From Acidobacteriota bacterium (lineage in GTDB: Bacteria; Acidobacteriota; UBA6911; RPQK01; JAJDTT01), in NCBI GenBank assembly GCA_965209055.1, contig OZ242374.1, forward strand, positions 5,728,001 through 5,792,000: a stretch of 64,000 nt of DNA, given 5' to 3'. Shown in pieces: positions 60,652 through 63,629 of this stretch (within the stretch, counting starts at the first letter, position 1; every line of letters starts with the position of its first letter). The notes under the pieces are model-generated. The model saw nothing but the letters and a program-made list of their open reading frames with translations. It was not told where the DNA came from and ran no database searches. The position numbers were made by a program, and so were the translations under genes.

Positions 60652-60725
60652 TATCAGGGACCGCCGGGTTCAGCGTCCTCGGAACCCCGCGCCTTGAGAA
60701 GACCGGAACGTTGCGGCACAGACCG

Positions 60726-61040
60726 CTACGGGCGCTTCGCCTGTTCCTTGGATGGAGTGGGGGTGGCCTTGACCATGATCCGGTCCCTGAGCCTCAGAAA
60801 AGTTTTCTCACCGATGCCCCGGACGTTCATCAGGTCTTCAATCCGCTTGAAGGCTCCGTTTTTCTCCCGGAACGCCACGATTCGCCTGGCGATTGCCGGT
60901 CCGACGCCGGGGAGAGCGTCCAACTCTTCCACCGTCGCCTGATTCAGATCCAGTTTGTCCGCAGCCGCCACATCCGGGCACCAGAGCCAGGGCATGGCCA
61001 TCAGCAAGGTCGAGAACAACAGAATCTTTCGCATGTGCAC
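60726..61040 (-). CDS. comEA: ComEA-family helix-hairpin-helix DNA-binding protein
   Basis: AAGGAGG RBS; signal peptide; LNQATVEELDALPGVGPAIARRIV..R...G.F..IEDL..VRGIG. Confidence 0.88.
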   Translation of the reverse strand: MHMRKILLFSTLLMAMPWLWCPDVAAADKLDLNQATVEELDALPGVGPAIARRIVAFREKNGAFKRIEDLMNVRGIGEKTFLRLRDRIMVKATPTPSKEQAKRP

Positions 61041-61065
61041 CTCCTTATGGGTTGTTATTTCGTTT

Positions 61066-62315
61066 GGGAATTACAAAGTGCAGTTGACACTTTACAGTTC
61101 TGGCGCCACGCTCAGCCTACTGGCCCACGTTCCGGCGCCCAGGGCAAAATTCCCGGCCCTGAGAATGTTCAGGGCCGCGTTGTGGTCCCTGTCCATTCTG
61201 AGATCGCAGGCTGAGGAGCGATACGTCTCGCTCCTCCCAGGTCGATTCCTGACGCCACACCGGTGACAGTCCCGCGACGTGTATTTCGGGTCCACTTCCA
61301 CGAACTCCCGCCCGGCCCACTCTGCCTTGTACTGGAGTTGATTGCGGAGAATGCCCCAGGATTGAGTCGCAATCTCACGATTCAGGCCCTTCTTGTTCAA
61401 ACCCTTCGTGGTCATACCTTTGACGTTCAGTTTCTCGACGGCAATCCGGCCATGCTCCCGGATAATTCCGGTGGTATGCCGATGGCACACATTCCGGTTC
61501 CTGACTTTCTCCCGATAGCGGAGTCGGGCCAGTTGACGGACCCGCTTCTTTCGACGGTTCGACCCCTTCTTGCTTCTTGCGATCGCTCTCTGCTGCTGCC
61601 GGACCTCTGGCCAGTCTCTCCGGTTCCGTTCGATCCGTTCCCCAGTGGACATAACCGCCCGCTTGCGAACTCCAAGATCAATGCCCACCGCAGACGGGCA
61701 TTCCGGCAACGGTTCCTTCTCCACCTCGTAGACCAGATCGACGTAAACCCGATTCGGCTTGCGGACGATCCGCAACGCTTTCAGTTCACCTTCGGGCAGG
61801 GGTCGAGCAGGAAACAACCGAAGCGTGGGGAATCCCTTGATCCGGATCGCGAATCCGCACTTGCGCTTCTTCACCATCGTCGTCTTCGGGTCCACAAAGT
61901 CGATGGTCTCCATCCGCGCGATGGGCCGGAACCGGGGATGCCCCGGCTTCTCCCCCGCCTTGCAGCGACGAAAGAACGCTTGGTAAACCCGGTCCAATCG
62001 AAACAACATTCCCCTTTCGGCCTTGACAGCAATGGACCCCAGTCCTTCCGGGTCGGCCTTGCGCTTCCGGGTCAATCCCTTCATCTGGTCATACAGGGAG
62101 ACGCTTTTCCTGTCCTTCTCCCAGGCGTTCTTTCGCTCCTCCAGGGCGGAGTTGTAGAGACGGTTCAAGACGGACCGAATCCAGTCGAGACGCCGCACCC
62201 CATTCTTGGAGAGTTTCGCCCGGCATTGGAAAGTTGCGTGAGAAATCATTAGATGGATGAGTACTCAATTGGCATGACATTGGTCAACGCACGTCAATTA
62301 GTCTTTATAATTCCC
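61066..62315 (-). mobile_element. Non-autonomous 1250-bp TIR element carrying only tnpB (IS1595-like ends, 8-bp TSD)
   Basis: Ends GGGAATTACAAAGTGCAGTTGAC (61066-61088) and reverse complement GGGAATTATAAAGACTAATTGAC (62293-62315), 18/23 identical. Flanked by direct repeat TTTCGTTT at 61058-61065 and 62316-62323. Confidence 0.85.
61092..62249 (-). CDS. tnpB: RNA-guided endonuclease TnpB family protein
   Basis: LYNSALEER, AFFRR...KPGHPRF, RuvC-I GIDLG, GSNRRKK, RuvC-II AVEKL, YKAEWAG, TSRDCHRCG, RuvC-III DRDHNAALNI. Confidence 0.95.
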   Translation of the reverse strand: MISHATFQCRAKLSKNGVRRLDWIRSVLNRLYNSALEERKNAWEKDRKSVSLYDQMKGLTRKRKADPEGLGSIAVKAERGMLFRLDRVYQAFFRRCKAGEKPGHPRFRPIARMETIDFVDPKTTMVKKRKCGFAIRIKGFPTLRLFPARPLPEGELKALRIVRKPNRVYVDLVYEVEKEPLPECPSAVGIDLGVRKRAVMSTGERIERNRRDWPEVRQQQRAIARSKKGSNRRKKRVRQLARLRYREKVRNRNVCHRHTTGIIREHGRIAVEKLNVKGMTTKGLNKKGLNREIATQSWGILRNQLQYKAEWAGREFVEVDPKYTSRDCHRCGVRNRPGRSETYRSSACDLRMDRDHNAALNILRAGNFALGAGTWASRLSVAPEL

Positions 62316-62375
62316 TTTCGTTTCCTATCTGAGCCTAACGTCCCGGGTGGAAAAAACGCGAAGCGGAGCGGCGGC

Positions 62376-63629
62376 TCACCCGGCAACTGGTGATTGGACG
62401 CCGTTGCAGAGATAGTCGAAAATTTCGTAGTTCCGGGCTCCCTGGGCCGCCCGGGACTCGTACTCGCCGCTCAGCGGTTCCGAGAGCAGCATGGGGACCA
62501 TCACCTCGTGGCGTCCGCCGTGGGACCGCAGGGGTTCGTTCAGGACGCTGAGATCGTGGTCGGCGGGGGTCTTCCCGATGACGGCGCCGGCGTCCGCCAT
62601 CACGACCAGATCGCCGATGCGGTCGGCCGGCAAATCCAGTTCCCTCGACGCCGCAGTGCGATCGTAGACTTCGTCGATGCCGGGCAGCCGGCGGATCCAA
62701 GCAGCCACGGAAGTGGTCTCCGCGGGTTCGGCCACGTGCACCATGACCGCCGAACCCAGGGATCCGTGATGAACGACGTAGGGGTCCGTGATGGGACAGA
62801 CCACTCGGTTCCCCTCTCCGAAACGGTCTCGCAGCAGAGATTCCAGATAAACGACGTTAGGGCTCCCGCCGGGTCCGGTTTTGGCGTTCATGCCGTGGTC
62901 AGCCGTCACTCCAACCCGGGCGCCGGTCTCCAGCAGCGCACCGATCTCCCGGTCCAGCGCCTGGTGAAAATCGAGCGACTGGTCAGACTCGGGAGGAAAT
63001 TTGTGCTGCATGTAGTCGGTCAGGGACAGAAAGAGAAAATCGGCCAGTTTCCTCTGCACGAGGCGGACACCGGCCGCCAGCACGAAGAGGCTGGCGCCGG
63101 CGCTGTAGATCTCCGGCTGCGGCCTGCCCACCAGGTCCTCCAGGTTCCCAATGCCGTGGGTCCCGACGGTGGCGGCCGCGGCCCGCTCCGATGAGAAGGC
63201 GATTCCATCCAGGTCCTTCGTCAGCAGGTCCCGAAGTTTTTCCTTGGCCGTCACCATCGCCACCTTCCTGCCGGCACGGGACGCTGCCGCCAGAATCGTG
63301 TCGCATCGGACATAGCGGGACGAGTTCATCATCAGCTCCCGGCCGGTCCGGGGATCGAGGAAGAAGTTGCCGCTGATCCCGGTGACGGAAGGAGGAACCC
63401 CGGAGACGATGCAGGCATTGTTCACGTTGGTGAAGGAGGGGAGGGCGCCCCGGACCACGGTCTCGAATCCGGCTTCAGCCAGACCGTCCAAATGGGGCAT
63501 GCGGCCGCGATTCCGGGAAACCTTCAGGTACTCGGGGCCGCATCCGTCGATGCAGACCACCGCCAGCGGCTTGGCCGGAGGCCGGTATTGCACTCCGTTG
63601 ACCCGGAAAGGCGTCGTGCTGATCCGCAT
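62376..63629 (-). CDS. phnA: Phosphonoacetate hydrolase
   Basis: VCIDGC, PSFTNVNN, TAKEKLR, TDYMQHK, TADHGMNAK, PITDPYVVHHG, LRSHGG. Confidence 0.92.
   Translation of the reverse strand: MRISTTPFRVNGVQYRPPAKPLAVVCIDGCGPEYLKVSRNRGRMPHLDGLAEAGFETVVRGALPSFTNVNNACIVSGVPPSVTGISGNFFLDPRTGRELMMNSSRYVRCDTILAAASRAGRKVAMVTAKEKLRDLLTKDLDGIAFSSERAAAATVGTHGIGNLEDLVGRPQPEIYSAGASLFVLAAGVRLVQRKLADFLFLSLTDYMQHKFPPESDQSLDFHQALDREIGALLETGARVGVTADHGMNAKTGPGGSPNVVYLESLLRDRFGEGNRVVCPITDPYVVHHGSLGSAVMVHVAEPAETTSVAAWIRRLPGIDEVYDRTAASRELDLPADRIGDLVVMADAGAVIGKTPADHDLSVLNEPLRSHGGRHEVMVPMLLSEPLSGEYESRAAQGARNYEIFDYLCNGVQSPVAG

Follow-up and report, generated by a model that had tools for sequence, protein, structure and literature searches.

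TnpB, from which Cas12 descends, is also a compact genome editor. Its known mode of action, in which an RNA guide directs it to cut the donor site again once the element has left, was established for IS605 and IS607, whose excision leaves no scar. How the nuclease could be of use to a DDE transposon, with the target duplications left by the latter, is a question that has been raised for the eukaryotic Fanzors and in a 2026 review, which calls TnpB-DDE associations rare in prokaryotes. The same question is posed by a locus in the window considered here, i.e. the whole analysed stretch of 64,000 nucleotides from a 6.08-Mb Acidobacteriota genome (G000), in which a tnpB gene lies between DDE-type ends.

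The unit is 1250 bp long (window positions 61066-62315) and is bounded by two 23-nt terminal inverted repeats (TIRs), GGGAATTACAAAGTGCAGTTGAC at 61066-61088 and GTCAATTAGTCTTTATAATTCCC at 62293-62315, which agree at 18 of 23 positions (listed as an inverted repeat with 78% complementarity). Outside them, a perfect 8-bp target-site duplication (TSD), TTTCGTTT, is found on the plus strand at 61058-61065 and is repeated directly at 62316-62323. Read in the sense of tnpB, which lies on the minus strand, the TIR at 61066-61088 is the right end (RE), with the IS1595-type terminus GGGAATTAC... (compare GGGGATTATA... at IS1595 termini), and the TIR at 62293-62315 is the left end (LE; GGGAATTATAAAGAC...); in the same sense, the TSD copy adjoining RE reads AAACGAAA, while the copy at 62316-62323 adjoins LE. 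The original prediction had described this length, these TIRs, the perfect repeat and tnpB as the sole gene, and all of these features were seen again. A search near the gene (TIR of at least 12/16 with an exact 8-bp TSD) returned exactly one solution bracketing tnpB. Over the whole genome, 23-mers matching the TIRs with up to five mismatches are confined to both ends of the unit and both termini of a single 257-bp MITE, and the pattern is therefore beyond chance.

The neighbours of the unit are a ComEA-like gene and a gene of the phosphodiesterase family; in the spacer separating them, the unit inserted into an AT-rich 8-mer, and these 8 bp were duplicated. A sister genome (G001) carries the empty site, ...GGTTTTCGTATCCTATC..., with a single TTTCGTaT and unchanged spacing, the region being shorter than in G000 by the unit plus one 8-mer. 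The empty allele that had been proposed as a check on the prediction is thus found in a close relative.

Further copies tell the same story in the genus. Besides G000, eight genomes of the genus were searched, and five of them contained tnpB matches (between 1 and 17 each); the 32 searched genomes of other genera had none. TIRs could be called in 28 of the 29 full-length copies examined, and among these 28 units the two TSD copies agree at 8/8 positions in 19, at 7/8 in three and at 6/8 in one, these TSDs being AT-rich and different from one another, as anticipated for other copies with 8-bp duplications of their own. The second of the two tnpB genes in G000 has TIRs matching at 20/24 positions, a value equalled by 0 of 200 shuffles. 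For the 1244-bp subfamily, five genomes were searched for LE copies or MITEs beyond those known, and none was found. These data show that the unit belongs to a multicopy, transposing family.

A rival reading would make the unit a canonical tnpB-only element of the IS200/IS605 family (IS1341 group) or of IS607, with TIRs and repeat due to chance or to hairpin ends. Distant relatives are indeed of IS605 type, with a Y1 TnpA directly upstream in 4 of 20 examined loci, and G000 contains two weak Y1_Tnp matches, which are distant from the unit and belong to ORFs 307 and 394 aa long; no canonical small Y1 TnpA was found near its two tnpB genes. Against this, IS605 and IS607 elements lack TIRs and TSDs (PMC13565253, PMC6188088), while the unit has both, its kind of ends is common to DDE-bearing insertion sequences (ISs), and exactly one 8-mer stands at the empty site. 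The empty site and the TSDs of the multicopy family, 19 of them perfect and differing, refute the canonical reading and that of chance TIRs, and we consider it extremely improbable.

Ends of the same kind can be recognized on transposase-bearing elements in the same genomes. G000 contains seven matches to DDE_Tnp_IS1595; IS1595 elements of three lengths there (2450, 3119 and 4799 bp) end in TIRs that are perfect over 16 nt (GGGGATTATA... or CGGAATTGTA...) and are flanked by TSDs of 8 bp. In comparison, the unit ends read GGGAATTA(C/T)A; no IS with ends identical to those of the window unit was found in G000, the best agreeing over the first 10-11 nt only. A closer candidate partner is a 1762-bp IS that is multicopy in G005, G007 and G002; comparison of its TIR, GGGGATTATATACGAAAGTG, with the LE of tnpB units in the 1244-bp subfamily gives 24 identities over 26 positions. 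The transposase of the autonomous IS carries the Pfam domains DDE_Tnp_IS1595 and Zn_ribbon_IS1595. There are 17 DDE matches in G005 and nine in G007, both rich in tnpB units, and 12 in G002, which has no tnpB. The search for autonomous IS1595 elements with matching ends, suggested together with the original prediction, was successful in G000 and in its sister genomes (24/26 at the left end), and the AT-rich TSDs of about 8 bp that it ascribed to this family were borne out by the autonomous copies and by ISApl4 (PMC12561309).

Across 37 tnpB loci, which together span 242 kb, no transposase was found in cis. Since the unit has no transposase of its own, it would be an IS1595 derivative and not an autonomous IS. 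We regard it as very probable that it is a non-autonomous IS1595-family transposon, whose TIRs enclose a structured RNA module and no gene except tnpB. The capture of TnpB by IS1595-type ends, proposed from the window alone, agrees with the ends shared with DDE-bearing ISs, with the empty site and with the multicopy TSDs. From the shared ends and the co-occurrence we infer that mobilization occurs in trans: a DDE transposase of IS1595 type, supplied by another element, would bind the ends and move the unit.

The tnpB gene (61092-62249, minus strand, 385 aa) is the only long ORF in the unit with a family match (Pfam OrfB_IS605, 1.2e-17, and Cas12f1-like_TNB, 1.2e-23), and its product matches ISDra2 TnpB (8bf8) over residues 30-372 with an E value of 1.9e-29. 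The RuvC triad, D191, E272 and D355, aligns with ISDra2 TnpB; the three acidic residues, already noted in the original prediction, are intact in the window copy and invariant across the nine aligned family members. The gene is under purifying selection, with dN/dS of 0.13-0.24 among the copies within the genus and of 0.32 against a copy from Binatia.

It should be noted that the zinc finger of the window copy, a point missed in the earlier reading, is formed by C328, C331, S345 and C348 and is therefore not a full C4 finger: the third Cys is replaced by Ser in this copy only, and the other eight aligned copies keep Cys at 345. Because of Cys345Ser, the window copy may be impaired; the second copy in G000 is an example of a family member whose finger is intact. 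The zinc finger is absent from some TnpB branches (PMC10691335).

At the 3' end of tnpB lies an omegaRNA-like structured module of three hairpins (61102-61199, minus strand), which overlaps the C-terminal codons of the gene and is followed by RE about 13 nt downstream. RNAalifold gave 30 pairs, 11 of them with compensatory changes. Paired cells amounted to 95.1%; the figure for shuffles was 87.1% (0/500), and sliding the partners lowered it to 35-45%, pairs being counted on the same alignment that gave the structure, whose rows are related. The single-sequence fold had z = -4.14. A covariance model recognized the module in the 257-bp MITE (83 bits) and, weakly, on the 3' side of tnpB in Y1-linked relatives (L150, 24.7 bits; L156, 21.7 bits). 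Rfam gave no match in 60700-62700 at E up to 1, and scans for sigma-70 promoters and intrinsic terminators returned 0 sites of either kind, which is uninformative. Metatranscriptome contigs from four RNA-library runs, 90-99% alike, cover parts of tnpB and RE, the uncovered parts being uninformative; as these contigs carry no information on strand or ends, and may derive from DNA carry-over, they are silent on the omegaRNA. The module may be an omegaRNA scaffold descended from IS605-type ancestors. Were transcription to proceed through RE into the flank, the guide would consist of the TSD plus the downstream flank, and the RE-side TSD copy (61058-61065) would supply its first bases.

It could also be that tnpB is inert cargo, i.e. 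that the window copy, and perhaps the lineage, rides IS1595 ends without any use of the nuclease. Such a reading would accommodate the Ser in the zinc finger of the window copy alone, and a review sees no obvious need of TnpB in DDE elements (PMC13565253). However, the invariance of the RuvC triad in nine copies, the low dN/dS values, and an RNA module with compensatory changes that is kept even in the MITE all count against this alternative and make it improbable.

The association is not restricted to the genus. A Binatia relative (52% identity) has a TIR of 17/20 and a TSD of 7/8, and ends of the same type were found in an Alphaproteobacteria metagenome-assembled genome (46% identity) and in metagenome contigs at about 40%. 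IS1595-like ends are thus retained by relatives in other phyla with identities as low as about 40%, while more distant ones are of IS605 type, with Y1 TnpA; close and fairly distant homologues are bounded by TIRs and TSDs, a point that the original prediction had put forward for checking. In a quick IQ-TREE analysis, from which four rows with internal stops (L114, L128, L186 and L157) were dropped, all 11 TIR-bounded rows are grouped together by a branch with an SH-aLRT of 99, and L124 and L132 lie within this clade, yet without TIRs. A search for TIR plus TSD in distant relatives (at least 13/18 and at least 7/8, respectively) covered 66 of the 80 metagenome loci and gave 0 of the 58 that have both flanks, and the control also gave 0. 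When only TIRs were considered, L127 alone stood out (19/22, compared with a control maximum of 16); the IS1595-like ends of L126 and L128 were judged by eye only.

The junctions of these insertions may offer a clue to what TnpB might do in such an element. The comparison covered 23 tnpB-unit insertions from a few subfamilies (five of the called units were left out because of their poor TSDs, and L109 had no call) and 24 insertions of autonomous ISs. In tnpB sense, 22 of the 23 tnpB units have G immediately before the left TSD (position -1), compared with 10 of 24 autonomous copies (Fisher p = 8.9e-5), and the first base of the TSD (+1) is A in 21 of 23 compared with 13 of 24 (p = 0.008). The motif is one-sided: 20/23 tnpB units have GA at the left junction and 4/23 have its mirror image, TC, at the right one, whereas the corresponding figures for the autonomous ISs are 6/24 and 5/24. 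In the window, the flank concerned is GATAGG (62324-62329, minus strand), a candidate TAM-like position, and an independent insertion in G005 begins after the same GATAGG. The -1 G is also present in the Binatia, Alphaproteobacteria and L127 units. Within the flank only -1 is conserved, with a weak signal at -2 and -3, a small number of positions by the standard of TAMs. The one-sided junction motif appears to be new and is TAM-like.

A functional reading of the motif can be outlined. An oriented G (often GG), adjoining the left TSD on its 5' side and preceding A-W-W, would be the TAM or a portion of it. With such a TAM, an empty site that has been restored (TAM-TSD-flank) would be open to cleavage by TnpB, and an occupied site, with an RE that ends in C, would be spared; the DDE element would in this way gain RNA-guided retention. 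Only those insertions that land by the motif in the right orientation would be kept or re-copied, and retention of this kind would generate the one-sided junction motif. That the oriented G/A-W-W is a TAM, and that TnpB cuts the empty site to the benefit of the DDE element, is in our opinion possible, and we propose it tentatively. The broader view, in which the retention logic of TnpB has been re-fitted to a DDE transposon with an 8-bp TSD, the guide starting with the TSD and the TAM being the G-rich left flank, perhaps extending into A-W-W, is rather unlikely.

The motif might instead have nothing to do with TnpB, reflecting an asymmetric target preference of the transposase acting on unequal LE and RE, or the preference of an IS1595 transposase other than those sampled. 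LE and RE of the tnpB units do differ consistently (e.g. A compared with C at position 5 in the 1244-bp subfamily), unlike the perfect TIRs of the autonomous ISs, and the sample is small, with 23 and 24 insertions and about two strongly conserved positions. Yet the motif persists across subfamilies with differing LE/RE contrasts (own1, L092, L095, L096, L098 and L099 types), the occurrence of the -1 G in the Binatia, Alphaproteobacteria and L127 units does not favour a transposase preference, and the motif lies exactly where a TnpB TAM is expected, on the tnpB-sense strand, 5' of the left end. We consider a target preference a serious contender, somewhat short of an even chance. The motif yields a concrete prediction of TAM and guide, and the family provides dozens of fresh insertions with clean junctions, a candidate helper IS and a MITE containing only the RNA module. 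If the re-fitted retention proved true, the family would be a tractable prokaryotic model for Fanzor-like nucleases serving TIR/TSD transposons, and the motif would be the first sign of a TnpB shaping the insertion landscape of a DDE element.

The general design of the unit is not new in kind, and the caution expressed with the original prediction about its novelty was apt. DDE-linked TnpBs with inverted ends, including solo copies mobilized in trans, were described in 2023 (Altae-Tran et al., 2023, PNAS; PMC10691335), the associated branches being named DDE-1 to DDE-6. As in those branches, tnpB lies within an inverted-terminal-repeat element, here with repeats shared with DDE-transposase elements, and its 3' end is within 250 bp of the element end; as in the solo tnpBs of that study, the ends are nearly identical to those of transposase-bearing elements and mobility is active. 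The partner family differs: the main text of that article names IS630 and, supplements aside, contains the word 'IS1595' 0 times, and a review lists ISL2, IS630 and IS1031 as DDE partners (PMC13565253), while here it is IS1595. Furthermore, tnpB is never in cis with the transposase here (0/37 loci), and the one-sided junction motif goes unmentioned in the accessible part of PMC10691335.

With the IS1595 ISs, the unit has in common the GGGGATTATA-type TIRs and the AT-rich 8-bp duplications, also known from ISApl4 (PMC12561309), for which a DR-joined circular form has been reported. These ISs often carry passengers here, such as methylases and REase-like ORFs, and a literature search found no paper on passengers in the ISNwi1 group of IS1595. 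Unlike them, the unit lacks a transposase, its cargo is an RNA-guided nuclease with its RNA module, and the one-sided motif is seen only at tnpB-unit insertions. With the IS1341 group of IS200/IS605 it shares tnpB as the sole gene, a homologous TnpB, and a 3' RNA module still weakly recognizable in Y1-linked relatives; those elements, however, have no TIRs or TSDs and depend on a Y1 TnpA, whereas the unit has both, with DDE-type ends. The label 'IS200/IS605 family' on tnpB genes can therefore misstate the mechanism of mobility.

The closest parallel in eukaryotes is provided by Fanzor1 and Fanzor2*, which reside within TIR/TSD cut-and-paste transposons (Bao and Jurka, 2013, PMC3627910; Yoon et al., 2023, PMC10711439). 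The present unit differs in being bacterial, in encoding a typical short TnpB near ISDra2-like enzymes (E 1.9e-29), and in having IS1595 as its partner; Merlin, the eukaryotic relative of that family, does not appear in the lists of Fanzor carriers consulted here (the word 'Merlin' occurs 0 times in the accessible text of PMC3627910). In both cases, however, a TnpB-family nuclease has been captured by unrelated DDE transposons and occurs in non-autonomous, nuclease-only copies, and in both the guide-RNA scaffold would enter the TIR and the TSD would be part of the RNA/TAM logic.

The unit that carries tnpB in the window is 1250 bp long (61066–62315) and is flanked by two copies of TTTCGTTT (61058–61065, repeated at 62316–62323), while its ends (61066–61088 and 62293–62315) are inverted repeats matching at 18/23 positions. 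Its sole gene is a 385-aa ORF (61092–62249, minus strand) with the Pfam domains OrfB_IS605 and Cas12f1-like_TNB, residues 30–372 of which align with the TnpB of ISDra2 (E 1.9e-29). This confirms the original prediction of a unit bounded by terminal inverted repeats (TIRs) and a target-site duplication (TSD) and containing tnpB alone. The complete RuvC acidic triad that had been claimed is also present, as D191, E272 and D355, invariant across nine family members; among the same nine, the third zinc-finger Cys is changed to Ser in the window copy only. In the whole genome (6.08 Mb), the 23-mers of the unit ends, with up to five mismatches allowed, were found elsewhere only at both ends of one 257-bp MITE, and a joint search for TIRs plus an exact TSD gave one single solution bracketing the window tnpB. 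A chance origin of the repeats was excluded on these two grounds.

The neighbours of the unit, both on the minus strand, encode a 104-aa ComEA-like helix-hairpin-helix protein and a PF01663 phosphodiesterase-family protein. The ComEA-like gene runs in the same direction as the unit, which sits about 8 nt upstream of that gene's ribosome-binding site, AAGGAGG (61034–61065). Read-through from tnpB and the right end of the unit (RE, in tnpB sense) would make a putative guide and also drive the ComEA-like gene. In a relative, an RNA-library contig spans the gene and the RE.

The window's assembly (G000) contains a second tnpB copy (75% protein identity), and none beyond these two. It lies in a 1255-bp unit with 20/24 TIRs, a match reached in 0/200 shuffles, and a decayed 6/8 TSD. 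Among the 40 related genomes searched, the TnpB protein occurs in five of the eight others of the genus, at 1 to 17 matches per genome, and in none of the 32 from other genera. A first tally found perfect 8-bp TSDs, together with TIRs of the GGGG(A/C)TTATA type at a fixed distance from tnpB, at 15 of 25 full-length loci. In a second tally, which largely re-samples the copies of the first and is therefore not independent of it, 29 copies gave 28 TIR calls (all but locus L109), and the expected variety of TSDs was found: 8/8 in 19 units, 7/8 in 3 and 6/8 in 1, all different and AT-rich. The TSDs were poor in the remaining five, L093, L094, L097, L100 and L103, of which L100 reads ATTTGATT by eye. 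L093, L094 and L103 have good TIRs and mismatched flanking 8-mers, and may have arisen when copies recombined with each other, which would make them rearrangement breakpoints. Two units with perfect TSDs (L113:2948–4326 and L120:2946–4351) are 1379 and 1406 bp long, versus 1228–1265 bp elsewhere.

The predicted empty allele was found in G001, a genome of the same genus without a tnpB match, which reads CACCTCCTTATGGTTTGGGTTTTCGTATCCTATCTGAGCC at the insertion site, with a single 8-mer; the length of the site is exactly that of the window's assembly less the unit and one 8-mer. In G005, another genome of the genus, the same spacer has received an independent insertion. This unit belongs to another subfamily, has lost internal sequence and is flanked by a different TSD (TTGGGTTT).

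The original prediction that tnpB had been captured by IS1595-type ends, and that autonomous IS1595 elements with the same kind of TIRs should exist, is supported by the window's assembly and by sister genomes. DDE_Tnp_IS1595 matches number 7 in the former and 1 to 17 in the latter, with 0 in G003. Four elements of the window's assembly resolve to perfect 16-nt TIRs and 8-bp TSDs: one of 4799 bp (GGGGATTATACAGTTG), one of 3119 bp (GGGGATTATATACGAA) and two copies of 2450 bp (CGGAATTGTACGCTTT). A 1762-bp IS (TIR GGGGATTATATACGAAAGTG, 8-bp TSDs), whose transposase has DDE_Tnp_IS1595 and Zn_ribbon_IS1595 domains, is multicopy in G005, G007 and G002; its terminus is identical at 24/26 positions to the left end of the tnpB units of 1244 bp found in G005 and G007, and the homology ends after about 25 bp. 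AT-rich 8-bp direct repeats, and a circular form joined via the repeat, are reported for ISApl4, of the IS1595 family (PMC12561309). No IS1595 transposase is present in cis in 37 tnpB loci (242 kb in total). Y1_Tnp gave two weak matches only in the window's assembly, both distant from tnpB: L220 (G000:C1:1142970–1143203, 30.8 bits) and L221 (G000:C1:3750831–3751106, 23.6 bits). Their ORFs, of 307 and 394 aa respectively, are too long for an IS200 TnpA, and may be REP-associated tyrosine transposase-like genes. Because the ends are shared with IS1595, the TSDs are of 8 bp and no transposase is found in cis, we infer that the tnpB unit is mobilised in trans by an IS1595 transposase, a reading that is strongly indicated.

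The autonomous IS1595 elements of the genus carry passengers of their own (L060:696–2457; L009:995–3426, where the element runs on; L007:1050–3444): a 110-aa Mrr/NA-iREase1-like ORF in the 1762-bp IS, a D12-class adenine methylase in the 3119-bp element, and a fusion of an N6_N4 methylase with an NA-iREase1 domain in the 2450-bp element. The 4799-bp element (G000:C1:1716560–1721358, partly covered by L006), with perfect TIRs and the TSD AATTGAAT, contains a 323-aa transposase gene and several unannotated ORFs, one of 538 aa.

The tnpB cargo looks functional and under purifying selection, judging from dN/dS values of 0.13–0.24 among copies of the genus and 0.32 against a copy from a Binatia MAG. 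When the 3'-terminal 180 nt of 13 units were aligned, they gave a fold of three hairpins and 30 pairs, with compensatory double changes at 11. As the structure derives from the same alignment, and its rows are related, the proportion of paired cells (95.1% vs 87.1 ± 0.9% shuffled, 0/500) and the covariation score (0.309 vs 0.167 shuffled, 0/500) are to be read accordingly; sliding the partners left 35–45% of cells paired. In the window, the module (about 61102–61199, minus strand; single-sequence fold z = −4.14) overlaps the C-terminal codons of tnpB, and some 13 nt separate its end from the RE. A covariance model derived from this alignment matched the deleted G005 unit (208 bits), the Binatia unit L118 (98 bits), the 257-bp MITE (L224:544–707, 83 bits), the metagenomic relatives L128 (59 bits) and L127 (30 bits), and the 3' ends of the Y1-linked relatives L150 (24.7 bits) and L156 (21.7 bits). 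These matches fit an omegaRNA (TnpB guide RNA) scaffold of IS605-type ancestry. The module region has no match in Rfam, and RNA-library contigs cover relatives' copies and carry neither strand nor end information. The MITE itself (L224:544–800; G000:C1:4815243–4815499, outside the window) has TIRs of the same type (GGGGATTATAAAGAC...) and is flanked by a TSD of its own (TACCCTTT). Over the first 164 nt it matches the omegaRNA-like module plus the RE, and it could effectively be a guide-RNA-only derivative, servable in trans by a TnpB.

A one-sided motif emerged when the 23 good-TSD insertions were set against 24 autonomous copies of IS1595, the former read in the direction of tnpB and the latter in that of the transposase gene. 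G at −1, just 5' of the left TSD, occurs in 22/23 tnpB units vs 10/24 autonomous copies (Fisher p = 8.9e-5), G at −2 in 14/23 vs 4/24, and A at +1, the first TSD base, in 21/23 vs 13/24 (p = 0.008). The left-junction GA is found in 20/23 vs 6/24, and the mirrored TC at the right junction in 4/23 vs 5/24. The −1 G is also present in copies outside the count (L100 by eye, the MITE, the deleted G005 unit, L121 and L127), and the two insertions that independently hit the spacer between the ComEA-like and phosphodiesterase genes share their orientation, the TSD of each starting directly after GATAGG. The motif lies where the TAM, the short motif required next to a TnpB target, is expected, and is a candidate TAM, possibly reaching into the TSD, as has been proposed for Fanzors (PMC13565253, PMC10711439). 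Since the RE ends in C, the occupied site would be spared. An asymmetric target preference of the transposase would produce such a motif as well and is a serious rival; the sample, 23 tnpB insertions and 24 IS copies, is small.

Outside the genus, the Binatia copy (52% identity) lies in a unit of 1264 bp whose TIRs (GGGATCTATATACC...) match at 17/20 positions and whose TSD matches at 7/8, and an Alphaproteobacteria MAG copy (46%) has GGGGATTATGTAGGAAAGTG upstream, its contig stopping within the gene. Among metagenome contigs at about 40–45% identity, L127 has IS1595-like ends (19/22), L128 has an RE only, and L126 is degenerate; the other 55 of the 58 testable distant relatives (31–39%) resemble the control in this respect. 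A neighbour scan of 20 distant loci (67 ORFs) found a Y1 TnpA directly upstream of tnpB in four and a DDE gene near tnpB in none. A quick tree of 36 rows (four left out for stops) places the 11 TIR-bounded rows together on the same side of a branch whose SH-aLRT is 99, apart from the clade that contains the Y1-linked rows. L124 and L132, whose ends could not be defined, group with the TIR-bounded rows. The simplest reading is a single capture of an IS605-type TnpB by IS1595 ends. Two TnpB relatives, L124 (inside the TIR clade with no detectable TIRs) and L135, are followed immediately downstream by genes of the phage-integrase family (L124:4321–4752 and L135:2340–3560), recalling the tyrosine-recombinase associations reported in 2023.

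IS605 and IS607 elements are described as having neither TIRs nor TSDs (PMC13565253; PMC6188088), whereas the window unit has both; according to Bao and Jurka (2013; PMC3627910), TnpB-only elements have neither. Altae-Tran et al. (2023; PMC10691335) presented six branches of TnpBs associated with DDE transposases. Inverted terminal repeats occur in all six, and the tnpB 3' ends lie at most 250 bp from the transposon end; the ends of solo TnpBs were nearly identical to those of transposase-bearing systems, implying mobilisation in trans. The only DDE family named in the main text of that paper is IS630, IS1595 not being mentioned there, and a 2026 review (PMC13565253) gives ISL2, IS630 and IS1031 as partners of an association that it calls rare in prokaryotes. 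Of nine papers that mention both TnpB and IS1595, none deals with their association, judging by title or abstract. The kind of element was already described in 2023; the present member has IS1595 as its partner and is apparently always non-autonomous. The case is documented by an empty site, a helper IS, a MITE with the RNA module and purifying selection, and the junction motif lifts it above routine interest.
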